64,000 nt of DNA from contig NC_043009.1 of NCBI RefSeq assembly GCF_006345805.1, positions 42,284,001 to 42,348,000 of the forward strand, read 5' to 3'. This DNA is from Octopus sinensis. Its lineage: Eukaryota. Under the pieces are notes generated by a model. The model was not told the origin of the DNA, searched no databases, and worked only from the letters and a program-made list of their open reading frames with translations. Positions 1-63,098 of the stretch are shown in pieces. A program made the translations under genes and the position numbers. Every line of letters begins with the position of its first letter. Within the stretch, counting starts at the first letter, position 1.

Positions 1-592
1 TACAATGGACTTCTTTCAGTTTTTATCTCCAAATCAACTTAAAAGTCTGTCATCCACTTGAGTGAGACTCCAGTAGAATATACTTGCTTAAGGTACCACA
101 TAAAAAAATCGAACCCAGAAACATGTGGCTAGAGAGTAAACTTGGTGCTGGTATAGTATGTGATCAACATACATGTTTCTGGTATAGCTTGTGATCTACA
201 TTAAGTCAAATGGTATAGTTTGTGATCTACTCCAACTTTTTGATCTACATTTAAAATTTATCTATTTACTTGACTTCTGGTTGGTTTGGTATATAAACCA
301 AAACAACTTTTATGATTTACACACTTTTAGTCCTGAGCCTATCGAAAGAAGTCGTGATGAGAGCAAAAGAACTTTACATACAGGTTTTTCGAGATGAAGA
401 AGCTGCAATAGAATTTCTCTGATGCTATGAACTCATTTATGAACATGGAGATATTGATCCATCTCTAATTATAATTGCAAATTTATAGCAAAATTTTGAA
501 TGTAGATAACAAGCTAGTCTAGATTTAAGTTGCTGTAGATCACATGGTATGTAGATTACATACTACACCGGCACTGTAAACTTTTTATCACA

Positions 593-1390
593 TAGGTGCA
601 GGAGTGGCTGTGTGGTAAGTAGCTTGCTTACCAACCACATGGTTCCTGGCTCATTCCCACTGCATGGCACCTTGGGCAAGTGTCTTCTACTATAGCCTCA
701 GGCCGACCAAAGCCTTGTGAGTGGATTTGGTAGACAGAAACTGAAAGAAGCTCGTCGTATATATGTATTTATTTATATATACTCTTTTACTCTTTACTCT
801 TTTACTTGTTTCAGTCATTTGACTGTGGCCATGCTGGAGCACCGCCTTTAGTCGAGCAAATCGACCCCGGGACTTATTCTTTGTAAGCCCAGTACTTATT
901 CTATCAGTCTCTTTTGCCGAACCGCTAAGTGACGGGGACGTAAACACACCAGCATCGGTTGTCAAGCAATGCTAGGGGGACAAACACAGACACACAAACA
1001 TATACACACATACATATATATACATATATATACGACAGGCTTCTTTCAGTTTCCGTCTACCAAATCCACTCACAAGGCATTGGTCGGCCCGGGGCTATAG
1101 CAGAAGACACTTGCCCAAGATGCTACGCAGTGGGACTGAACCCGGAACCATATATATGTATATATACATGTATGTATGTTTGTGTTTCTGTGTTTGTCCC
1201 CCAACATCACTTGACAACCGATGCTGGTGTGTTTACGTCTCTGTAACTTAGTGGTTCGGCAAAAGAGACTGATAAAATAACTACTAGGCTTCCAAAGAAT
1301 AAGTCCTGTGGTCGATTTGCTCAACTAAAGGTGGTGCTCCAGCATGGCCACAGTCAAATGACTGAAACGAGTAAAAGAGTAAAAGAGAGT
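593..1390 (+). mobile_element. tRNA-derived SINE family A (CORE-like), with a second SINE-A nested antisense at ~781-1150
   Basis: A-box-like tggctgtgtgg, B-box-like segment, CORE-like ccttgggcaagtgtcttc, internal (TA)n/(TG)n spacer, (taaaagag)n tail. About 20 copies in the window. Confidence 0.85.
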
Positions 1391-1439
1391 ATATTTTTGT
1401 TTCTTAACTTGCTTGTTAACTTATTTAAAAATTATTATA

Positions 1440-2056
1440 ATCTTTTATTCTTTTAATCTTTTACTTATATCAGTTATTAGATTGTGGCCATGCTGGAGCA
1501 CTATCTTGAAGAATTTTAGTGGAATGAATTGAACCTGGTGCTTCCCTCTTTTTTAAGTCTCGTACTTATACTCTCACTCACTTTTGCTAAACCACTAAGT
1601 TACAGGGACATAAACACACCAACACCTGTTATCAATCAGTAGTGGAGGATAAACACACACACAACACATATACGACGGGCTTCTTTCAGTTTCCATCTAC
1701 TGAATCTCCTCTTAAGGTTTTAGTCAGCTCAAAGCTTACAGTAAAAGACACTTGATGAAGGTGACATGCAATGGGACTGAACTAGGAACCATCTGATTGA
1801 GAAGTAAACTTCTTATTTCTTTACTGCCCACAAGGGGCTAAACATAGAGGAGATGAACAAGGACAGACAAACGGAGAAAGTTGATTATATCGACCCCAGT
1901 GCATAAGTGGTACTTATTTAATCGACCCCGAAAGGATGAAAGGCAAAGTCGACCTCGGAGGAATTTGAACTCAGAACGTAGCAGCAGACGAAATACCGCT
2001 AAGCATTTTGCCCGGCATGCTAACGTTTTTTACCACACAACCATGCCTGCACCTAT
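1440..2056 (-). mobile_element. SINE-A interrupted by a SINE-B copy (~1813-2030)
   Basis: The SINE-A body stops at 1812 and its head resumes at 2031 (taccacacaaccatgcctgcacct). The intervening sequence matches SINE-B. Confidence 0.8.
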
Positions 2057-2144
2057 TATAAACAAATAGCAGCAGATTAAAAGAATAAAAGATTATAATA
2101 AATTTAAATAAGTTAACAAGGAAGTTAAGAAACAAAAATATACT

Positions 2145-2395
2145 CTCTTTTACTCTTTTACTCTTATGCTCTTTTGCTTGTTTCAGTCATTTGACTGAGG
2201 CCATACTGGAGCCCCACCTTTAGTCGAGTAAATCGACCCCGGGACTTATTCTATGGAAGCCTAGTACTTATTCTATTGGTCTCTTTTGCTAAACTGCTCG
2301 GTTACAGAGACGTAAACACACCAGCATCGGCTGTCATATGATGTTGGGGAGACAAACACAGACACACAAACATATACACATACATACATATATAT

Positions 2396-2439
<44 letters not shown>

Positions 2440-2606
2440 TACGACGGGCTTCTTTCAGTTTCCGTCTACCAAATCTACTCACAAGGCTTTGACCGGCCCG
2501 AGGCTATAGTAGAAGACACTTGCCCAAGGTGTCACACAGTAGGAATGACCTCAGAACCATGTGGTTGGTAAGCAAACTACTTACCACACAGCCATTCCTG
2601 TGCCTA
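2145..2606 (-). mobile_element. SINE-A, full length
   Basis: Head, CORE-like segment, (TA)n spacer and tail are all present. Confidence 0.85.
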
Positions 2607-3043
2607 TGTGATAAAAATTTTACGGTGCCGGTGTAGTATGTGATCTACAGCAACTTAAATCTAGACTAGCTTAGTGATGGAGATCAGACAGTGTAGCAAG
2701 TAGAGTCAAATTTATTGTGAAATTTGTGTTGATTGAAACTTCAAAATTTGTTTAATGACTGCTTTATTCCGCCCGGATAAGTCATTAGGTGAAAATCTTT
2801 TTGTCTCAAACAGATTTTTATTATGAATGACACAAGCATTATTGGATCAAAATAGCAATATTTGTATCATATTTAAAGCAGATACAACATTGAAAGCCTC
2901 ATAAGCTGTGGTATTCATCTTGAGATAGCTTCTATTATAATCGTTCAGTCACTGGTTGATTTTTGTCTGCTACTGATCTATTTCTGTGTTTTTTAACACT
3001 ATACATATTTAAGAGATGTTATTTCAAAACAAATAACATCTCT

Positions 3044-3087
<44 letters not shown>

Positions 3088-3329
3088 AAATTTATATAGA
3101 TAAGAATAAGATCGTTATTTAAATATCAATCTTATCAAGTGGCTCGCATGGGAATAAAAAACCTTCAAAGGTAATAATTATTATTAAAATTATTATTTAG
3201 GGTATCTAAGAGATATCACCACGTTGGAAACAGCAGCCAAAACTTGACTCTAAAACCACATTAAATGTTCATACAGCACCAGGAGAGAAGACAAAAAGAC
3301 AAAATTAACTAGCAAAAAATTACTGGATA

Positions 3330-3387
3330 ATTCCAGATCCCGGATTTCTGGCTCTGCATAAGAAATTCTTTGCCTCATCAGTGGAAT
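3330..3387 (-). ncRNA. Type-I hammerhead motif in a PLE pLTR-like fragment (~3095-3410)
   Basis: Minus strand: attcca-CTGATGA-ggc...gcc-a-GAAA-tccggga-TC-tggaat. 6-bp stem I and near-palindromic short stem III. Confidence 0.75.
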
Positions 3388-3569
3388 ATACAACACAGAT
3401 AGCACATAAATACAAATATATATATACAATAAAATATATATATATATATATCATATATATATACATATATATATATCTGTGTGTGTGTGTATGTGTGTGT
3501 TTTATATGCATCAATATGTGAGCATATATATGTATGTTATATATATATATTATTTGATGTTGATGACGT

Positions 3570-4174
3570 TGACAACGACCACAGTGATGACGATGATGAT
3601 GTTCATGGGGAAAATGACGATGTATTCTGTGCTTTGACATTTACATTTTGCAATAATGTAACTACATTCCTCAGCATTTGTCCTATGTTATGTTGTACCC
3701 GAATGTTTTGTGTATCTATGTTACCAAATGAAGCAACTATTGCTATCCTCAGCAGTTTCACCTCCACCTTCTCCTCCTTCTCCTGCTCATCATCGTCATC
3801 ATCATCATCATCAATATGATCATTATTAATATTTTCATTCACATTATTATGTACGTTTCATAGTTGTATTTAATGTTGCCCATTTTGTTGCAGTTGTGTG
3901 GTCATGTTTCTTTACAAATTCTTCGTCCATGTTCACAAACGAATCGTGTTTTTGTATGGAACAGATAAATAAAAAGATGTTATAATTGAAATATAAAGAT
4001 TGCAGATATTAATATTATACAAGAATATCTTGGGGTTTGTATTTCAAATACAATGTGTGTGTGTGTGTATACTTATCGTATATCAGGCCATATATTTTGT
4101 ATTAATATACGTCATATATATATATACATATATGCCTGTATGTGTGTGTATGTATGCGTATATATGTGTATATG

Positions 4175-6235: not shown

Positions 6236-6745
6236 CCCATGATGTATACCAACACCCAACAGTCTGATTGACACATTGTTTCTTGGTCTGGCCGTTGTCC
6301 GTGCAACATCGATATTCTTCCCTCTGTTTGTGATATCTTGTATCTCTGCCGTAAGGCTTCATTTCCACACACGTCACCTTAATTCAATTCATCCTTAGTC
6401 GAAAGACACCTGTTGTTATGTCCTGTTATTATTTTTATTGTATTTGTATTTGTGTAACATTCTCCGTTTTTTCCGTCCTTGTTTTTTGTATTCATTCGCT
6501 GCTTTCTTCCAAGGAATCTAATGCTCTTAGCTTAGTTTTTCCTTGGGGCTGGCCAGATTGGAGCAATCTCATGTATAATCAGCCGAAATTGCGAGGATAA
6601 TCCGGTGCATGATATATAATACTTATATAAATTTCGAATGACCTGTCCTTGTTTTCTTTGTATCGTCTATCTGGATATTTTGTTGTCCCATTTTTGTATC
6701 ACCTAGCTGACCGGATGTTTTGCGTTCTTGTCCCATTTTGTATAA
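6222..6745 (+). mobile_element. pLTR-like repeat, family X1, carrying the permuted hammerhead-like motif; partial second copy at 27985-28112
   Basis: Shares taatcagccgaaatt.cgaggat.atccggt and ttttgcgttcttgtccca with the 28 kb copy. T-rich 3' tract ends in (TA)n. Confidence 0.55.
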
Positions 6746-12084: not shown

Positions 12085-12470
12085 TTTGCTTATGCCTGTC
12101 TCCTCTCATAGCTCGTCCTCCTAGCGTTCATAATAGTTTTTCTATCGTCTTGGCTTAACGGCCCTCACTGTTTGTTTTTACTGTCTTGTTTTCACTGTCC
12201 TGTTCTTGTTGCCACTTTCACTTTATTTAATTTGCTTTGCAGGAAGGATTGTTTCAACAAAGTCACGTATTGTCCTTACCTTCGAAAACACGGAGTAGAT
12301 GAAACAGGGAAAACTGATGAAGGGGAATATTCTATATGTTGCATGTCTTGTTTCTCTGTTTTGTTTTTTACGTTGTTCGAAAAAAGTTCGTTTTCTATGT
12401 TTTTGTTTTTATGTTTTCGCTTCTCATTGTGTTCAAAGTATTTTTTATGTTGTGTACCCATATATGCATA
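12085..12470 (+). mobile_element. pLTR-like repeat, family X2, carrying the permuted hammerhead-like motif; second copy 61447-61646 (-)
   Basis: The two copies align closely (tgtccttaccttcgaa.ac.cggagta.atgaaacaggga.aactga.gaag.ggaatattc) and end at (TA)n. Confidence 0.6.
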
Positions 12471-17014: not shown

Positions 17015-17049
17015 ATTTCTGATGAAGAGCTCCGCTCGAAACATGAAAT
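17015..17049 (+). ncRNA. Decayed minimal hammerhead in a pLTR-like fragment (~16955-17150)
   Basis: attt-CTGATGA-a-gagc tcc gctc-GAAA-ca-TG-aaat. The cleavage triplet is mutated. Confidence 0.65.
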
Positions 17050-17160
17050 GCTCTTTCTTTTCTTTCCTTTCCTGAGTGTCCAATAACACAGTACATGTTC
17101 CACATTCTCACATTGTTTTTTCTTGCTTGTTCTTGTTGGGATTGCCTATATATATATATA

Positions 17161-21144: not shown

Positions 21145-21304
21145 AGGTGCAGATGTGGCTGTGTGATAAGAAGCTTACTTCTCAACCACATAGCTCCAGG
21201 TTCAGTCCCATGCATGGCATTCTGGTCAAGTGTCTTCTACTATAGCTTCAGGCTGACCAAAGTTCTGTGATTGGATTTGATGGACAGTAACTGAAAGAAG
21301 CCTG

Positions 21305-21349
<45 letters not shown>

Positions 21350-21610
21350 TCTCTATATATATATGTATGGATGTATATATTTATGTGTGTGTCTTTGTGT
21401 CTGTGTTTGTCTCCCACCCGCCATTGTTTGACAACCGATGTCAGTGTGTTTGCATCTCCATAACCTAGCAGTTCAGCAAAAGAGATAGATAAAATAATTA
21501 CTTGGCTTACAAAGAATAAGTCCTTGGGGTCAATTTCTTCAACTAAAAATCCCTTAAGGTTATGCTCCAGCATGGCCGCAGTCAAATGACTGAAAAAAGT
21601 AAAAGAATAA
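21145..21610 (+). mobile_element. SINE-A, full length
   Basis: Head, (TA)n spacer and tail present. Confidence 0.85.
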
Positions 21611-22109: not shown

Positions 22110-22502
22110 AGGCGCAGGAGTGGCTGTGTGGTAAGTAGCTTCTTTATCAACCACATGGCTCTGGGTTCAGTCCCACTGTGTGGCACCTTGGGCAAATGTC
22201 TTCTACTATAGCTTCGGGCTGACCGAAGCCTTGTGAGTGGATTTGATAGATGGAAACTGAAAGAAGCCCATTGTATATATATATGTGTGTGTGTGTGTGT
22301 TTATCCCTCCACTAATGCTTGACAACCAATGCTTGACAACCAATGCTGGTGTTTTTATGACCCCATAACTTAGCGGTTCGGCAAAAGAGACTGATAGAAT
22401 GAGTATTAGGCTTACAAAGAATAAGTCCTGGGTTCGATTTTTTCAACTAAAGATGGTGCTCCAGCATGGCCACAGTCTAACGACTGAAACAATTAAAAGA
22501 AT
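22110..22502 (+). mobile_element. SINE-A, full length
   Basis: Head aggcgcaggagtggctgtgtgg through the tail. Confidence 0.85.
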
Positions 22503-25410: not shown

Positions 25411-25496
<86 letters not shown>

Positions 25497-25497
<1 letters not shown>

Positions 25498-25972
25498 TGT
25501 CAATACATTGGGATATGCCAATACACACAGATAGAGAAATTAAGGCCAACAGACCATTTTTTGATATAGTTGTCAGAGATCATGAAGAGAAGAAATGCTT
25601 TTTAATTGATGTATCAATACCAGCAGATGACAACGTTTCTCTAAAAGAAATGGAGAAACTTTCAAAATACAAAGACCTGGAAACAGAGATAACTAGAATG
25701 TGGAATCTAAAAACAGAAACAATTCCTATCATAATAGGTGCATTAGGTATGATAAAAATATATTCAGACAAATACATAACAAAAAACACCAGGACTTACA
25801 AACACATATAACATTCAGAAAATTGCACTACTAGGCACTGCACACATCCTACGCAGAACACTTTCAATACAGTAACCATCAGAGCACCAAAACAAATCAC
25901 AACACATACCCAAGGCACACAGAGCTGCGCTCGGTAGTGAAGTGAAAGCACGCTATAAAAATAAAACTACTG
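25497..25972 (+). mobile_element. R4/Dong-type 3' fragment, copy 1 (PD-(D/E)xK RLE domain)
   Basis: WDMPIHTDREIKANRP..DIVV...LIDVSIPADDNVSLKEMEKLSKYKDL..EITRMW...IPIIIGALG, flanked by (TAA)n on both sides. Confidence 0.88.
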
Positions 25973-26003
25973 AATAATAATAATAAATAATAATAATAAT
26001 AAT

Positions 26004-26476
26004 ATGTCAATACATTGGGATATGCCAATACACACAGATAGAGAAATTAAGGCCAACAGACCATTTTTTGATATAGTTGTCAGAGATCATGAAGAGAAGA
26101 AATGCTTTTTAATTGATGTATCAATACCAGCAGATGACAACGTTTCTCTAAAAGAAATGGAGAAACTTTCAAAATACAAAGACCTGGAAACAGAGATAAC
26201 TAGAATGTGGAATCTAAAAACAGAAACAATTCCTATCATAATAGGTGCATTAGGTATGATAAAAATATATTCAGACAAATACATAACAAAAAACACCAGG
26301 ACTTACAAACACATATAACATTCAGAAAATTGCACTACTAGGCACTGCACACATCCTACGCAGAACACTTTCAATACAGTAACCATCAGAGCACCAAAAC
26401 AAATCACAACACATACCCAAGGCACACAGAGCTGCGCTCGGTAGTGAAGTGAAAGCACGCTATAAAAATAAAACTA

Positions 26477-26479
<3 letters not shown>
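26004..26479 (+). mobile_element. R4/Dong-type 3' fragment, copy 2 (tandem duplicate, period 507 bp)
   Basis: Sequence and ORF translation appear identical to copy 1. Confidence 0.88.
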
Positions 26480-26529
<50 letters not shown>

Positions 26530-27502: not shown

Positions 27503-28888
27503 TGCTCATCTTTATGAATATGATATTTCGTGACTAGAATGTGAGAAAGCATAATTATGGAATCGCCTGCCCCACCTTGAAATTTACCATTAATTGTTAG
27601 AGTAGTCTTTTTATGTCATAATTGTATTTCATATAATACAGTAGGTATTCACAATGCTCATACATAATTACCATACAGATGCTCTCATGTACAAAGTCAT
27701 ATAAAGACAGATAATAATATATATACCTCTTTAAGAAAGAAAATATATATATTAACGAATGTATCTGTTTATATATCTATATGTGCATCTGCGTATATGT
27801 ATTCACAGATACGCATACAAGCATCACAAACATATAGTCAAAATGCATTGCAGTTTGGGCAAATATTTTCTACCAGAGCCTCTGTCAAGACAAAGCTTTT
27901 AATTTCCATCTGGTAAATGGAAATTAAAATACAGAAAACTGAAGGAAGCTTATATATATGTACATATATTAATATATATATATTAATCAAGATTAATCAG
28001 CCGAAATTACGAGGATGATCCGGTTCTTGATTGAAGGCTTCGAATGTCCCGTCCGTGTTTTTTGTATCGTCTTCTAAATGTTTTGCGTTCTTGTCCCAGT
28101 TTGTATTTTTTTACATATACATAAATATATAGCGGCGCCCGTACCCTTTTTGGTCTATATATATATATATATATAGATAGATATAGATATATATAGGAGC
28201 AAAACGCCCTCCCTCCCCGTCCAATGGACAGTGCTGAGTTGTCAAACATTTAAACCAAATTTTCTTAAAACAACTTGCCCGACTGTCCCATAGGCCTCAC
28301 ATTTGAGAAACACTGATTTAACCTAAATTTGAGACACCAAACAGGCCTGCTTTTTGTGCGCAAACTGCACGTGCATTTTTCTCACGTACGCGTAGTATCG
28401 ATCGCAACAGCTGATGTACTTGCGCGTACAGATGCATGTTCCCACGGCTTTATCGATCACATTCTCACCTAGAATCGATTTTTGTAATTTTTTCAAGACT
28501 TATACACGCCTTGATACCGTCGGGCAACAAAGATTTTGCTACAGAAGACCGAAAAGATTTTCCTTGCTAATTTTGGTACGCTGATTTCAAATCTATTATT
28601 AGATTTTTTTTCTATCACGTCTAGAATTCGTGTAAAATACAAATCATTAAGTAAAATATCCTTCCATGTCGAGATTTTGGATTTTTTTGTCTTAATGCCT
28701 GTAACATGAAACTTACTTTCCAATGTTAACGCTTTTTTTTGCAAAGTATATACAAATTTTAACGATTTTTGTCAATAAAATTTATCCCGAGTCGGTAACA
28801 CTGAATCAAGAACATCCGTGACAAGTAGAGCAGTTGGTAAAGACAGCAGTTCATCTGAAGATTCTGCTAGTGGTATAAAAATAAGGAA

Positions 28889-30445: not shown

Positions 30446-30712
30446 TAGGTGCAGGAGTGTCTATGGAACAGCAGAGAAGACAAGAACGACTACGAAAAAC
30501 ATGATTGGCCATCTAGAACTGAACATGTTGTTGGTAAACAAAATGAGAAATACCCAGAACTTACCAACCACATGGTTCTGGGTTCATTCCCACTGGGTGG
30601 CACCTTGGGCAAGTGTCTTCTACTATAGTCTCGGGCCGACCAAAGCCTTGTGAGTGGATTTGGTAGACGGAAACTGAAAGAAGCCCATCGTATATATGTA
30701 TGTATGTATATC

Positions 30713-30772
<60 letters not shown>

Positions 30773-30975
30773 AGTGTCTTTGTCCCCCACCATCGCTTGA
30801 CAACCGATGGTGGTGTGTTTACGTTCCCGTAACTTAGCGGTTCGGCAAAAGAGACCGATAGAATAAGTACTTGGCATCCAAAGAAGAAGTCCTGGGGTCG
30901 ATTTGCTCGACTAAAGGCGGTGCTCCTACATGGCCGCAGTCAAATTACTGAAACAAGTAAAAGAATAAAAGAATA
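30446..30975 (+). mobile_element. SINE-A inserted in the Chapaev element, head disrupted by a transposase-derived insert
   Basis: aggtgcaggagtg...[106 bp foreign]...ttaccaaccacatggttc, followed by the normal body and tail. Confidence 0.85.
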
Positions 30976-32114
30976 TAAGATCTGGAATTAGCATCAGAAA
31001 TTTGATAGGAATCAGTAGTTTACGTGTTTGTAACAAAAAAGAAAAGTTGAAATTTGTTGCCTTGCATAATGGTTCTATCCTGTATTATTTTATGATGGCA
31101 AGATAATCTCCAAGTCATTTAATGTAGTAGAACAAGTGATTCTTCAATTGTTCAACTTGTTGTGGTTTCCTTGAAACAATGTTTGCAATGGCCAGAAAAA
31201 TTTCCATGAATCAAATCAAATCAAATACCAACTAAACGCTCAGAGATAACACTCTCACTTCTTGATAAACGGAAGGACACACTGGATAACGTAGTCCTAA
31301 ATTAGAAACAAAAATAGGCGGTATGATTACCCCTAGAATGCTTTTGACTCTAAGTCTGTACTCTCTCTCTCACCCCAGGTGTCTTGCCTGTTTTACATGT
31401 ACTGGAAATCATAGCCCTCCATTTCAAACTCTGAATACTCATGGTTGGTGGGAAGGAGATGAGATACGACAATGGTTTTCTATTGCCTTCTGCTGGTTTA
31501 TTTACAATTTACCTTGGTACTCTCTTGCTCTCCCAAAATTACCTTTGAAGCAGATAATTCATTTCACTCTCAGGCAGAGGGACTGGATCACATGACATCA
31601 GAATATAGCCACACACTGGTGAAACTGTGCGGCACATGTCAGGGGATCAATCCGTTCTCTAAGTCTTGTGTGTCTTAGCCACTAGGAAATCTTTCTATTT
31701 TCATCTGACCTACAACTGGTGCCCTTTGACGGGTATCAGAACGGACTCGGTACTAATTGTGACTAACTGGTAACTCCATATTCTTCAAAACGCTTCAACT
31801 TCTTGGTTGACAGAAAATGTAAGATGACCGTCGTGTGTGTGTGTGTGTGTTTGTTCCCCCTCCACCGCTTGACAACCGGTGTCTGTGTGTTTATATCCCC
31901 TTAACTTAGTATTTCGGCAAAAGTGATCTATAGAAAAAGTATCAGGCTTTAAAACAACAAAAAAAGTACTGGGTTTGATTTTGATTCATTCTACTACAGT
32001 TCTTCAAGGCAGTGCCCCAGCATGGTCGCAGTCTAATGACTAAAACATGTAACAGATAAAATAAAAGATACAATATGATAGAAACCAAACAGTGGCAGCA
32101 GCAGCAACAGCAGT

Positions 32115-37494: not shown

Positions 37495-38218
37495 TATATG
37501 GATACAGGATGTTACAAAACGTAAACAACTTGAAATACGAAAACAACATGAAATGCGAGAGCAGCTTGGGTATGCGAACAACGTGAGAAATAAGTGGAAA
37601 ACAAGACAAGTAACATAAAGAACGACCCTTCATCAGTTGTTGCTGTTCATCTACTCCACATTTCGAGCAATCAATATGAGGCTTCGAAAAGCAGTTGCTC
37701 CTGTGAACCAAAATAAAATTTGGGATCTTGCGGAGGGTCAAAGTTGGTAGCAAAAACAGGACAGTGGAGACATACAACAAACCAAACGAAAACATACATA
37801 GAGTGCCGTTTGACCAGACGCGGTAAGGTAGCGAACGCTGGAGGAACATTCTTTGACAAGAGAAAAGATAGGAGAGGTGGCAGATGAGAATGCGTCTGGG
37901 CTGTGCGACAGATTGAAGGAAAAGAAAGATGATCACGTGAAGAAAAGATGGACGATGGTCACGTATGAGCAACGAGCGAGAGACTAAAGGAGGAAGAGGG
38001 AGAGAGAGACAGATAGAAAACGGTGAAGGGGAGAAAAAAGAATTAGAGAAAAGATGAGAGAGAAAAATGAAAGGGGAAGAAGGAGAGAAAAAAGAATTTG
38101 GGAAAGGAAGAGAGAGAAATCGAAAGGAGGAGAGAGAGAGAGAGAGAACGGTACATGGTAGAGTCGCATCAAAATTATTACGATAACTTACTCGGAAATG
38201 GATCCGTGGCATTCCATC
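37495..38218 (-). mobile_element. pLTR-like repeat, family X3, carrying the permuted hammerhead-like motif; second copy 40745-41013 (-)
   Basis: The two copies align over about 270 bp and are bounded by (TA)n. Confidence 0.6.
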
Positions 38219-38518: not shown

Positions 38519-39853
38519 GCTAGAGAATCACGCCAACGAACTACCACACCGCATCAAAAAAGAATTTGTGATAGAAGGGGTCAAATTCATCCTGGAAAAT
38601 AACTTCTTCGCCTTCAATGACAACTTCTACCGACAAAAATCGGGGACTGCGATGGGTACACGAATGGCCCCTTCCTTTGCCAACCTAGTCATAGGATACC
38701 TAGAGATTAGTCTGTATCGTAAGGTTCTAGAAAGATATGGCAGCCCTTTCTCCATCTACATAGAAAACAACTGGAAGAGAATATCTAGATGACTGTTTCA
38801 TCCTTTGGCATAAAAATATAAAAAAAACTCATAGAATTCCAGAAAATTTTAAACGGACTGGACGAAACATCCAATTCACGATGGAATATAGCCAACAACA
38901 ACTCCCCTTCCTCGATATCCTCATTAAGAAAGCTAATAATATAATAGAGAAACAGACATATACTATAAGCCTACAGACTCTAAGCAATATCTTCCATTCA
39001 ATTCATGCCACCCCAGACACACCAGGATGAATATCCCCTTCAATCTAGCAAAAAGGATATGCACTATAGTCTCTAACGCAAACACCAGAGACACACGACT
39101 ACAAGAACTAAAAGATACCCTAATCACCAGGAACTATCCACCTTCACTTATTGACAAGTGCATTCAACGTGCCCTTCAACTTAACATCAAGGAACTGAGA
39201 CATCCCAAATCAAAGAAAAACTTACAACCAAAAGCCTTACCATACATCTCCACACACAACCCTCTCAATAACGAAGCCTTCGACACCATCCTCCACAACA
39301 TACCCCTCCTAAAAAAAGACCACAGAATGAAAACAATCCTCCAAACACACACGATCATAAAAAGCAAAAGACAGCCTAGATCCATGAAAAGTCTCCTTAC
39401 ACAAGCCCGAATTCACTCCTTAACACAGAAGCCGACAGTAAAAAAATGTGGAAGACCCAATTGCGGGATATGCGACTATCTAATTGAGGGATCAGAGTTC
39501 TCCTTCAAGCAGGGACAACGGTTTACAGTGAAAAGCAACTTCACATGTGCTTCGGAGAACCTAATTACTCCACTAACCTGCTCCGGGTGTCAAGAGCAGT
39601 ACATAGGCCAAACAAAAATGGTTTGCGTAAACGAATGGCCCTGCACAGATCCCAGATAAAAATCCCCAAAACAGAAAAATAGCTTTTAGCCAACACATAG
39701 ATACTTGCGCCAACAAAAAAACACCAAACTTCAGAATTTTCCCCCTCTCTACCAATTAGGGACGATACAACCTCGAGACAACGAATAAGTAAAGAAAATC
39801 TCTTTATTACAAAATACAAGCCACTTCTAAACGGGTCTACGACAAACAATTAA
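38519..39853 (+). pseudogene. PLE reverse transcriptase + GIY-YIG endonuclease, frameshifted
   Basis: FILENNFF.FND.FYRQKSGTAMGTRMAPSFANL, YLDD, LPFLDI, YYKPTDSKQYL.F.SCHP, CGRPNCGIC, FTC.S.NL...LTC.GC..QYIGQT. Confidence 0.92.
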
Positions 39854-40627: not shown

Positions 40628-41086
40628 AAATGTTCACTATAAAATTATTTTAGCATTTTCTATTTTTGACTTGTTTTCACGATATATCAACTCGTGTGTT
40701 CCTTTTCACCCTTATACATATATATATTATATATATATATATGCATATATGAGTACAGGACGTCACTAAACGTAAACAGTATGAAATACGAAGTCAAACT
40801 TGGGTATTCGAATAACGAGAGAAACAAATCGAAAACAAGACAGGTAACATGAAGAATGACCCTTTATCAGTTGTTGCTGTTCATCTACTCCACATTTCGA
40901 GCAATTAACGACAATATGAGGCTTCGATAAACAGTTGCCCCCGCGAACCAAAATAAGATTTGGGATTTTTGCGGAGGGTCAAAGCTGGTAACAAAAAACG
41001 GGACAGTGGAGACTTAATAGAGATGATTTTATTTCATATGTAAATATATATATATACGCTCACACACATCTACATATACACATACA

Positions 41087-41760
41087 CTGTGTGGTACGAA
41101 GCTTGCTTCTCAACCTCATGGTTCTTGGTTCAATCCCAGTGCCTGACACCTTAGTCAAGTGTCTTCTGCTATAGCCTCTGGCCGACCAAACCCTTGTGAG
41201 TGTATTTGGTAGACGGAAACTGAAAGAAGCCCGTCGTTTATATGTGCTTGTGTGTATGTATGAGTGTGTGTGTGTGTGTGTTGTGTGTGTGTGTGTATTT
41301 GTGTGTTTCTGTTTGCCCCCACCATCGCTTGACAACCAGTGTTGGTGTGTTTACGTCTCTGTAACTAGACGGTTCGGCAAAACACACCGATGAAATAAGT
41401 ACTAGGCTTACAAAGAATAAGTTCTAGGGTCGATTTGTTCGACTAAAGGCGGTGCTGCAGCATGGTCGCAGTTAAATGACTGAAACAAATAAAAGAATAA
41501 AAGAGGGTGTGTGTGTGTGTGCGTGTGTAAGTGTTCTATCAGTATTTTTGCCGAACCGCTAACATACAAGGATGTAAACACACCAACACCGGTTGCCAAG
41601 CGATAGATGGTGGGGACAAACGAAGACAAAAACACACACAGATATATACATATATATAGGACGGGCTTCTTTCAGTTACTGTCTACCAAATCCACTCACA
41701 AGACTTTGGCCGGCCCGAGGCTATAGTAAAATATACTTGCTTAGGGTGCCATACAGTGGC
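41087..41760. mobile_element. Tail-to-tail inverted SINE-A pair (41087-41503 +, 41530-41760 -)
   Basis: Family motifs in opposite orientation, about 30 bp apart. Confidence 0.8.
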
Positions 41761-44810: not shown

Positions 44811-45240
44811 TTTGTAGAAAAAGAGCAGAGTACTTTAAAGCTCCTAAAACGCAAGGTTAGAAAAGTGTGTGAACCAGAAAACATTAACTTTCGTGAATAG
44901 GATAACGCTGTGCCTTACATAAGATATTAGGGTATTATTTGAGAGGATATGGTTGCTATTCCTGGGTAGAAGAACTACAGTGTATATATATATATATATA
45001 TTTTATATTATATATATATATTTGCACATATATATAAATATTACACACATACACATGTGTATGCATGTATACGCACACACACATATATATATATATGTAT
45101 AATATACACATGTATCATCTATCTATCTATCTATATATATTATATATATATATATATATACATATATTATATATATATTATATATATATATATATATTAT
45201 TATATATATATATTATATATATACATATATATTATATATA

Positions 45241-45442
45241 ATTCTTTCATTCTTTTACTTGTTTCAGTCACTAGACTGCGGCCATGCTGGGGCATTGCCT
45301 GAAGAATTTTAGTTGCATAAATCGACTCCAGTACTTTTATATTTTTTAAGTTTGGTACTTATTCTATCGGTCTGTTTAGCCGAACCGCTACATTACGGAG
45401 ATATAAACACACCAACACCGGTTCTCATGCAGTGGTTGGAAA

Positions 45443-45521
<79 letters not shown>

Positions 45522-45683
45522 ATATACACGACGGGCTTCTTTCAGTTTCCATCTACCAAATGCACTCACAAGGCTTTAGTCGTCCCGAGGCTATAGTAGA
45601 AAACACATGCTTATGCTTCCACGTAGTGGGACTGAACCAGGAAACACACATTCTTCTTTCCACACAGCCACGCCTGCGCCTAT
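45241..45683 (-). mobile_element. SINE-A
   Basis: Family motifs present. Confidence 0.8.
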
Positions 45684-52023: not shown

Positions 52024-52196
52024 TAGGCGCGGGCTTGGCTGTAGTAAAATGTTTTCTTCGCAACAACATGGTTCTGGGTTCAGTCCCATGCGGGACACCT
52101 TGGGCAAGTGACTTCTGCTATAGTTTCGATCTCACTAGAGCATTGTGAGTGAATTTTGTACACGGAAACTGAAAGAAGTCCATCGAATATGTGTGA

Positions 52197-52255
<59 letters not shown>

Positions 52256-52460
52256 AGTTTGTTCCCCATCCTTGCTTGACAACCATTGTTGGCGTGTTTA
52301 CGCACCCGCAACTTGGCAATTCGGCAAGGTGGCCGACAGAATAAGTACCAGGCTTTACAAAAATATAAGTGCTAGGGTCGATTATTTCGACTAAAATTCT
52401 TCAGGGCACTGCTTCAGCGTGGCCACAGTCTAATGACTGAAACAAGAAAAATATAAAAGA
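52024..52460 (+). mobile_element. SINE-A with (GT)n spacer
   Basis: Family motifs present. Confidence 0.8.
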
Positions 52461-58998: not shown

Positions 58999-59363
58999 AG
59001 GCGCAGGAGTGGCTGTGTGGTAAGTAGCTTGCCACTGCGTGGCATCTTGGGCAAGTGTCTTCTGCTATAGCCCCGGGCCGACCAATTTGGATTTGGTAGA
59101 CGGAAACTGAAAGAAGCCCGTCACATATATGTATATATATATATATATATGTATGTGTGTCTGTGTTTGTCCCCCAAGCATTGCTTGACAACCGATGCTG
59201 GTGTGTTTACGTCCCCGTCACTTAGCGGTTCGGCAAAAGAGATCGATAGAATAAGTACTGGGCTTACAAAAGAATAAGTCCCGGATTCGATTTGCTCGAC
59301 TAAAGGCGGTGCTCCAGCATGGCCGCAGTCAAGTGACTGAAACAAGTAAAAGAGTAAAAGAGT
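58999..59363 (+). mobile_element. SINE-A, young copy with internal deletions
   Basis: Near-consensus sequence with CpGs intact. Confidence 0.88.
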
Positions 59364-59676
59364 ATGTGTATAAGAAAATTACTTTATCACTACTCGTGAT
59401 TTTCTAATGGGACTATTTTATTAAAACTACTGAAAATTCTGTTAGTAATCTTTAAAATGGCATGAAATCGAAGACTTAATCTCTCTTTAATATTACTTTA
59501 TTACAATACGACTACTAATATAACTTTGCACTACGTTCTTATTTTTAAATCAGAGAAAATTGTATATAGCTGGATTTGGACGAACAATTTCAGTGAACAC
59601 TGTGAAGCGGATTCTAAAATTCTAAAACAATATATTAGTAATACGCATATAGCCCACCCACCACATACACACATTC

Positions 59677-61271: not shown

Positions 61272-61890
61272 AAACCACATATAACAAACTAAAAATACAC
61301 GTTATAGCAACAAACGACGTTACTACAGTTTTTAACCACTAAATCAGTGGTGATGTCGTTTCCTACGGAGCAGGCGTGATAAACATTACTGATGCATATA
61401 ATAATAAAAATAATATATAAATATATGCATATATACATATATGGGCATGCCTACATATATATGGGTACATGACATCATACAAACGTTGAACACAATGAGA
61501 AACGAAAACATAAAAACAAAAACATAGAAAACGAACTTTTTTCGAACAACGAAAATAACAGAGAAACAAGACAAGCAGCATAAAGAATATTCCACTTCTT
61601 CAGTTGTCCCTGTTTCATGTACTCCGCGTCTTCGAAGGTAAGGACATACATATGTATATATGAATGTATGCATGTATGTATGTATGTATGTATGTATGTA
61701 TGTGTGTATGTATGTATGTATGTATGTATGTATGCATGCATGCATGCATGCATGTATGTATGTATGTATGTATGTATGTATGTATGTATGTATGTATGTA
61801 GGGGAGAATTCACGAAAAAACAAAAGACGAAGACAGGTGGTGTAGAAAACAAACAGATATATTAGTATAACGCTCAGGAATTTAAAAAGT

Positions 61891-62485: not shown

Positions 62486-63098
62486 CTCTTTTACTCTTTT
62501 ACTCTTGTTTCAGTCATTTGACTGTGGCCATGCTGGAGCACTGCCCTTAGTCGAACAAATCGACCCCATGACTTATTCTTTGTAAGCCTAGTACTTATTA
62601 TGTCGGTCACTTTTGCCGAACCGCCAGGTTACGGGGACGTAAACACACCAGCATCGGTTGTCAAGCGATGTTGGGGCGGGACAAACACAGACACACAATC
62701 ATACACACACACACACATACACACACACATATATATACATATATGTGACGGGCTTCTTTCAGTTTCCGTCTACTAAATCCATTCACAAGGCTTTGGTCGG
62801 CCTGAGGCTATAGTAGAAGATACCTACCTAAGGTGCCATGCACTGGGACTGAACCCGGAACCATGGGGTTCGTAAGCAAGCTACTTACCACACGGCCAGT
62901 CCTATCAATAATGGTTTCAAATTTTGGCACAAAGCTAGCAATTTCGGGAGGTGGGGTAAGTCGATTACATCGACCCCAGTATTCAGCCAGAAAGGCAAAG
63001 TTGACCTCGGAAGAATTTGAACTTAGAACGTTAAGTCGGACGAAATGCCGCTATGCATTTTCCCCGGCGTTCTAGCGATTCTGCCAGCGCGCTGCTTT
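62486..63098 (-). mobile_element. SINE-A (62486-62903) followed by SINE-B (62910-63098)
   Basis: Family motifs present. Confidence 0.82.

Follow-up and report, generated by a model that had tools for sequence, protein, structure and literature searches.

A repeat in the genome of Octopus sinensis raises the question of whether the parts of a hammerhead ribozyme can be joined in an order that opens the catalytic core itself. The repeat family, X1, was found in a window of 64,000 nucleotides (NCBI RefSeq assembly GCF_006345805.1, contig NC_043009.1, positions 42,284,001 to 42,348,000 of the forward strand), within a TA-rich genome of 2.72 Gb. All coordinates below are those of the window unless a locus is named. 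The original prediction had described, at 6493-6640, the permuted helix order of two other families, X2 and X3, with different base pairs in every helix, and had read this as selection on RNA structure. With good confidence, we regard X1 as a non-coding TA repeat, likely mobilised by Naiad, with a hammerhead core in non-circular order, whose A9-G10.1 step is opened by two helices and which is predicted to cut itself after AUC. The most likely reading of the structure is that of an active hammerhead whose new wiring is linked to Naiad elements.

The X1 copy in question spans 6279-6743 on the plus strand, is 5'-truncated, and is followed by a TA run. It corresponds to positions 301-751 of the natural copy L005 at 87% (positions 1300-1764 of the query L001). 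Its parts all lie on the plus strand, and the pair counts given here were taken over 30 aligned X1 copies. An outer closing helix is formed by 6493-6498 with 6635-6640 (175/180 pairs kept). This pairing had been predicted as P0 and stands, but it is only the outer extension of a proximal closing helix, P0, with its 5' strand at 6503-6508 (170/180 pairs kept, and seen in the fold of the intact copy L010). In intact X1 copies the partner of this strand is the six bases directly 3' of CUGANGA, which are missing from the window copy. Hairpin H (6509-6546, arms 6509-6516 and 6539-6546, 237/240 pairs) abuts P0 and stem II without a gap.

The stem II 5' strand (6547-6552) starts with G10.1, is detached from CUGANGA, and pairs with 6579-6584 (177/180). 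The interaction helix Ix follows, with its 5' strand at 6553-6559 and its partner at 6599-6605 (201/210, and in the L010 fold). The hinge between Ix and stem III was placed at 6560-6562, facing 6593-6598, from the counts over the 30 copies and by inference. Positions 6563-6568 comprise the stem III 5' strand and the AUC triplet (stem III 6563-6566 with 6589-6592, 118/120 pairs; UC 6567-6568). The predicted cut falls after 6568, and the triplet is AUC in 30/30 aligned copies. The stem I strand 3' of the cut (6569-6574) pairs with 6607-6612. The stretch 6579-6592 holds the stem II 3' strand (6579-6584), GAAA (6585-6588), and the stem III 3' strand (6589-6592), with CGAAA in 28/30 copies. At 6599-6612, the Ix 3' strand (6599-6605) precedes the stem I strand that leads into the core (6607-6612), and the 13-nt linker covers 6593-6605.

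The helices named in the original prediction, the UC, the GAAA, the linker, and the AT-rich overwrite were all found where it had placed them, and the pairings were maintained across copies; Ix and the proximal P0 had been overlooked. Alignment of X1 copies confirmed that AT-rich sequence at 6613-6634 has taken the place both of CUGANGA and of the proximal P0 strand. The window copy is therefore unable to form the core, and is a dead relic.

The state of the family was examined on the best 30 of 40 scored copies, with the window copy included. X1 is repetitive, with 3033 candidates in the genome, and the 40 scored copies showed 89-91% identity, the self-match apart. An exact 20-mer downstream of the motif had 785 genome matches, and its control had 0. 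CUGANGA was present directly after the second strand of stem I, where it had been suggested to look for it, in 21/30 aligned copies; eight others carried point changes, and the remaining one was the window copy. It was retained in 56/73 distinct X1 copies collected. The family thus shows the CUGANGA, GAAA, and UH core of a hammerhead, and stems I-III that covary between families.

Within X1, covariation was confined to stem I pairs 6 and 3. Among 73 copies, pair 6 was U-A in 23 and A-U in 22, with U-G (13) and A-G (10) mismatches and five other cases, while pair 3 was G-C in 4 copies. A compensatory change in stem I had been claimed from a U-A pair at position 4. That pair occurs in the window copy alone (1/73), and the changes seen at family level are those at pairs 6 and 3. 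The A-U subfamily at pair 6 is represented by a second X1 copy at 27987-28106 (+), which has a degenerate core. The original prediction had given this copy as 27985-28047; it is an X1 copy, but its true first base is 27987, just after the predicted cut, so that its 5' end lies exactly at the cut. No compensatory change was found in stem II among the 30 aligned copies, and the evidence for selection on structure is thus evidence between families.

The sequence order of the elements from 5' to 3' is P0a, H, IIa, Ix, IIIb, the UH cut, Ib, a short linker, IIb, GAAA, IIIa, Ix', Ia, CUGANGA, and P0b. In its nested fold, L010 forms a rod from P0, H, Ix, and III, and stems I and II are left as pseudoknots; the z-score of this fold was -1.2, with pseudoknots outside the model. 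No Rfam hammerhead was found in the window among 150 of 173 matches listed, which held only TA-repeat microRNA-like noise. Since Rfam misses the motif, invertebrate ribozyme counts are likely too low. The little covariation inside X1, the weak fold z-score, and the missing Rfam match would suit a chance pairing in a repeat misread as a ribozyme, a reading taken up again below.

Two other readings were tried and rejected. In a canonical type I reading, with the bases after CUGANGA as stem II/III, stem I could not be formed and the A15.1-U16.1 pair was absent by eye. The closing motif was also considered as HDV-like, a reading that was dropped since every hammerhead element fits. As a separate observation, a minimal hammerhead motif in canonical order, with one additional A separating A9 from G10.1, lies at 17019-17050 (+), in another TA-flanked repeat, and a similar minimal motif follows a C-terminal GIY-YIG remnant in locus L070.

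The same helix order with different base pairs was found in four further repeat families of the genome, X2, X3, X4, and X5. Alignments were made of 25 X2, 25 X3, and 20 X5 copies, and further subfamilies were reached with a wiring descriptor. In the window, the wiring occurs in X2 at 12222-12348 (+) and in X3 at 40840-40990 (-), both by family alignment and comparison. Family comparison alone placed a further X3 copy with this wiring at 37606-37749 (-) and an X2 copy at 61569-61646 (-), the 5' end of which lies about one base past the predicted cut on its 3' side. Sequence comparison shows X2 to be related to X3. X1 had been called unrelated in sequence, and no blastn match to X2 or X3 was found within the window; by eye, though, X1 shares flanking motifs with X5. 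A GIY-YIG-like remnant is also present at 39438-39617 (+), with a tblastn match to P0085 (E 2e-7), on the opposite strand to the nearby X3 copy.

Across 487 kb of loci that our own searches had enriched, the descriptor returned 56 split matches, 30 of them strict. On three shuffles of these loci it returned 0, 1, and 1 loose matches and no strict one. It misparsed some copies, for example L006, L040, and the X1b and X3 representatives, and found no clean P0/H in L230. Because the search was built to demand full pairing of each strand with its own partner, the proper control for the representatives is given by the shuffles.

Among seventeen non-identical representatives, the 5' strand had 12 distinct versions in stem II, 10 in stem I, and 10 in stem III, and only 30, 55, and 52 of the 272 cross-family strand combinations, in the same order of stems, paired fully. 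The G10.1-C11.1 pair was invariant in 18/18 representatives, while other helix positions took two to five pair types. P0a-H-IIa and CUGANGA-P0b were joined with gaps of 0-1 nt in 17/18. Stem II measured 5-6 bp, stem III 4-7 bp, and Ix about 5-11 bp, and the III/Ix break was always present. In a cross-family MAFFT alignment, the core alone stayed in register. A five-pair stem II could be formed from the bases after CUGANGA in 0/17 representatives, and its 5' strand must therefore come from upstream, as had been proposed. The idea of selection on RNA structure is likewise borne out by the constant order, the differing pairs, and these cross-family counts. Seven helices in one fixed order across families argue against chance pairing, and, on sequence comparison, the split-core fold is a real, conserved RNA structure.

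Among known ribozymes, the closest are the permuted hammerheads in the available text of Eckert 2023 (PMC10085705). The original prediction had named neither this relation nor the host element. That text derives six permutations from three uninterruptible blocks, reports the new types as absent from eukaryote genomes, gives SGC from metatranscriptomes only, and gives type-CSG from two metagenome sequences only. The wiring described here resembles types SGC and CSG in the cyclic order S-G-C, the short I-to-II linker, the interaction helix joining the other I/II strands, and the core. It differs from them in that block C (Ia-CUGANGA-IIa) is split at A9/G10.1 and closed by P0 and H, in that both strands link III to Ix, and in that the class sits in animal retroelements. 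X1 lies outside the six described types because an intact block C is absent and CUGANGA is not followed by stem II within 0-2 nt. The same source states that no insertion larger than 1-2 nt between CUGANGA and its stems is known, which makes activity of the split core an extrapolation. Core insertions of 1-2 nt only are likewise reported in the accessible part of Perreault 2011.

Other systems share single features with X1, as far as the available portions of their descriptions go. The PK hammerhead (Zhan 2024, PMC11300833) has an extra helix and a pseudoknotted stem II, but its A9 apparently continues into the G10.1-C11.1 stem, which is not so in the split core. The CChMVd (+) hammerhead tolerates one extra base at A9-G10.1 and keeps the circular order, whereas X1 has two helices there. 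Non-LTR retrozymes (bioRxiv 10.64898/2026.07.22.740005; Cervera and de la Pena 2020) are, like X1, non-autonomous, ribozyme-bearing units derived from Penelope-like elements (PLEs). They carry classical type I hammerheads in tandem arrays, in contrast to the roughly 750-bp, mostly dispersed, 5'-truncated X1 with its permuted split ribozyme. The accessible parts of PMC13725137, PMC10162972, PMC12192606, and the 2026 retrozyme preprint describe nothing like a split core. Neither a split-core nor a Naiad-associated permuted hammerhead was found in the text, figures apart, of a largely open literature, and an earlier description elsewhere is possible. We could not find the wiring described in the literature searched, and call it new in that sense.

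In the proposed mechanism, the predicted rod (P0, H, Ix, and III) would be the first state of the folding RNA. A bend at the III/Ix hinge would next bring the end loop of the rod (Ib, IIb) into pairing with the strands of the P0 multiloop (Ia, IIa). The two resulting pseudoknot helices, I and II, would assemble a normal core. From known hammerhead chemistry, G12 would serve as the base and the G8 2'-OH as the acid, and the part of the absent backbone link, keeping A9 next to G10.1, would be taken by P0 and H.

The required bend bears on the hinge. A kink-turn has a 3-nt bulge followed by tandem G-A/A-G pairs, and the X1 hinge (6560-6562 with 6593-6598) presumably follows this pattern. A sequence fit was seen in X1, X4, and X5, with different hinges in X2/X3 and most metagenome examples, and most hinges outside the three kink-turn-like families are asymmetric loops of 3-6 nt. 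The main structural rival is the same ribozyme acting as a dimer or in trans, for instance between tandem copies. Two rods would lie antiparallel, and the end loop of one would pair with the CUGANGA multiloop of the other, so that no III/Ix bend is needed. The X2/X3 hinge indeed reads like a loop-E-type motif, which is straight; one published Naiad has just a 1-nt bulge at this place by eye, and tandem copies are common. With stem III joined to Ix through both strands, a monomer would have to turn sharply, a geometric puzzle that the available text of Eckert 2023 shares. Against a dimer stand the asymmetric III/Ix break and short stem III in 18/18 parsed representatives, the kink-turn fit in the three families, and helix lengths that resemble those of CSG-1, which cleaves in vitro according to the same text. 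We consider the dimer unlikely, if worth keeping in view, and prefer the bent monomer.

How X1 spreads was inferred from the form of its copies. A full copy is about 750 bp long, inserted in TA, with TA runs at its flanks, and no conserved ORF was found in X1 loci. Copies are mostly dispersed and 5'-truncated, with some head-to-tail. Partial tandems were seen in L043, L053, L054, and L056, inverted truncated copies in L031, L039, L042, and L050, and a tail of about 30 bp past the TA run in L010, L012, L023, and L060. These hallmarks match the description of Penelope-like elements in the accessible part of Craig 2021 (PMC8557442), where Naiads show (TA)n insertion, partial tandems, inverted truncated copies, and a 30-40 bp tail. 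X1 differs from Naiad in having no ORF and no sequence link to the Naiad ORF. In tblastn searches with 46 long Naiad-type proteins, 0/150 X1 loci matched, and no ORF joining an N-terminal GIY-YIG to a reverse transcriptase (RT) was found in them; X2 (0/95 loci) and X5 (0/20) likewise gave no match. X3 matched in 4/95 loci, and in the two inspected the match was a neighbour outside the element. No relative was found among viral contigs. Mobilisation of X1 by a Naiad-type Penelope-like element is likely.

The coding link came from X4. A 21-mer from a published octopus Naiad had 167 exact genome matches and its reversed control 0, and the published 3' ends of Naiad_Obim and Naiad_Ovul carry the same wiring by eye (PMC8557442 supplement). 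Of 49 RT loci in the genome, 16 have the Naiad-linked X4 on the strand of the RT remnant, at a distance of 0.3-2.6 kb downstream, and none has it upstream or on the opposite strand. Full-length relatives of this RT showed an N-terminal GIY-YIG in 5/8 long proteins scanned. A Pfam scan of the 141-aa RT fragment returned no family; its relatives and its by-eye likeness to the published octopus Naiad suggest that it is Naiad-type. A broad protein alignment showed no usable pattern.

A metagenome scan gave 31 Naiad-type RT loci. In 12/31 the sense strand carried the strict split motif 3' of the RT, with 11 distinct motifs (L210 and L231 share one), and the antisense strand carried it in 0/31; 60 shuffles gave five single matches (mean 0.08). 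This contrast of sense and antisense, together with the representatives, refutes the chance reading, which retains a practically negligible probability. Six of the 12 carriers have a near-full ORF with an N-terminal nuclease motif (L211-L215, L222). In L222, a 1344-aa Naiad-type ORF (24-4055) extends about 380 aa beyond the RT match.

Seven of the 31 loci, in which the sequence past the RT match is shorter than 300 nt, have no motif. The other 24, with at least 300 nt, divide into 12 with and 12 without the split motif. Two of the latter, L220 (4620-4740) and L228 (2410-2525), are Naiad-type with long, C-terminally extended ORFs and carry, by eye, an apparent unsplit SGC hammerhead after the stop. 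The remaining ten (L203, L204, L206, L207, L208, L218, L224, L226, L227, and L232) reach 358-1434 nt past the RT match and gave neither a persuasive hammerhead nor an Rfam ribozyme; a ribozyme of another kind may be present, or the loci may be truncated. No Rfam hammerhead was matched at E<0.5 in the 20 metagenome loci searched, where again only TA-repeat microRNA-like noise appeared.

The published Naiads were read by eye in the PMC8557442 supplement among the matches listed, at places 26-53 of 62 for one core word and 5-12 for three others. The split form was seen in the Beroe element Naiad_Bfor, with a stem I of only 2-3 bp, and in three Acropora Naiads; it was also seen in four further entries, the names of which follow from file order alone. 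An unsplit CSG form was seen in at least six entries of the nematode block (File S5), namely Naiad-1, -2, and -3_Nbra and three more. The accessible part of Craig 2021 reports no canonical hammerhead in Naiads, only 'core' or 'half-core' matches.

Alternatively, the ribozyme could be real while X1 owes its mobility to a different PLE clade, one that targets TA and has its endonuclease at the C-terminus. X1, X2, and X5 have no coding link, remnants of C-terminal-endonuclease PLEs are also present in this genome, and one such GIY-YIG remnant with a minimal hammerhead-like motif adjoins an X3 copy, with a TA run between. Every coding locus found with the split wiring, however, is Naiad-type, and other PLE clades carry canonical type I hammerheads in a published table. 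We therefore hold mobilisation by another clade to be rather improbable and keep to Naiad. We also think it probable, with less assurance than for X1 itself, that Naiads across animal phyla are the natural home of non-circular hammerheads, and that a seventh wiring, with an active core clamped by two helices, cuts the element RNA in vivo, as the 5' ends of copies record. Cleavage would free the element RNA from read-through or tandem transcripts and define the template's 5' end, and the Naiad RT/endonuclease would then copy the released RNA into (TA)n.

The 5' ends of genomic copies were mapped because the copy at 27987 starts on the predicted cut. A total of 232 copies were chosen by downstream motif, in genome order, as the first listed: 90 X1 of 785, 72 X2 of 676, and 70 X3 of 444. 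Pooled 5' ends fell in 0..+19 of the predicted cut in 56/205 copies at risk, in -20..-1 in 16/149, and in +20..+39 in 19/224; further upstream the rate was 0.04-0.08 per 20 nt. The 20-nt window was picked after inspecting X1, and with it 0..+19 exceeded -20..-1 at p=3e-4 pooled (0.054, 0.007, and 0.10 per family). The pile-up is broad, with a mode at +11 (9 copies), 6/232 ends exactly at 0, and the best step at -8 to -2. Most ends lie at +5..+17, inside the Ib/IIb strands, and X1 has TA microhomology at +5..+8. A pile-up just 3' of the predicted cut fits in vivo cleavage and also RT stalling; stalling at stems I/II or the TA microhomology could contribute. In a separate observation, the head-to-head inverted X2/X3 pairs L336/L337, L347/L348, and L359/L360 have junctions at most about 15 nt from the predicted cut.

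These ends bear on a further rival, a non-catalytic signal of hammerhead descent that serves PLE protein binding or RT positioning, with 5' ends made by RT stalling. The excess at +5..+17 rather than at 0 favours it. So does the anole Poseidon PLE, in which the PAc hammerhead is dispensable for insertion in vitro and needs protein for cleavage, according to the accessible part of Frangione 2024; this makes the role in transposition less sure than the fold. On the other hand, no pile-up arises at hairpin H, which lies upstream and is stronger (hazard 0.04-0.07 in -80..-21). The catalytic bases, UH (H never G, as the search imposes), and G10.1-C11.1 are also kept in 17 unrelated sequences. A purely non-catalytic role thus appears quite improbable beside the active ribozyme.

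If the active reading is true, it overturns the uninterruptible CUGANGA block, on which the count of six possible permutations depends, and the claim that Naiads carry only partial hammerhead cores. Non-circular permutations would gain a biological setting in animal genomes, with hundreds to thousands of copies per family. The natural series of CSG in nematodes, SGC-like, and split forms would bear on how wirings interconvert, and, with copy ends piling up at the cut, the role of PLE ribozymes becomes open to a direct test.

Two further features of the window were recorded. A dispersed repeat of about 400 bp has at least ten copies at 70-90% identity, at 780-1150, 2150-2600, 21150-21610, 22110-22500, 30560-30980, 41090-41510, 45240-45650, 52040-52460, 59030-59365, and 62486-62900. 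At 25450-26510, a segment is duplicated in tandem with 98.7% identity and a period of about 505 bp.
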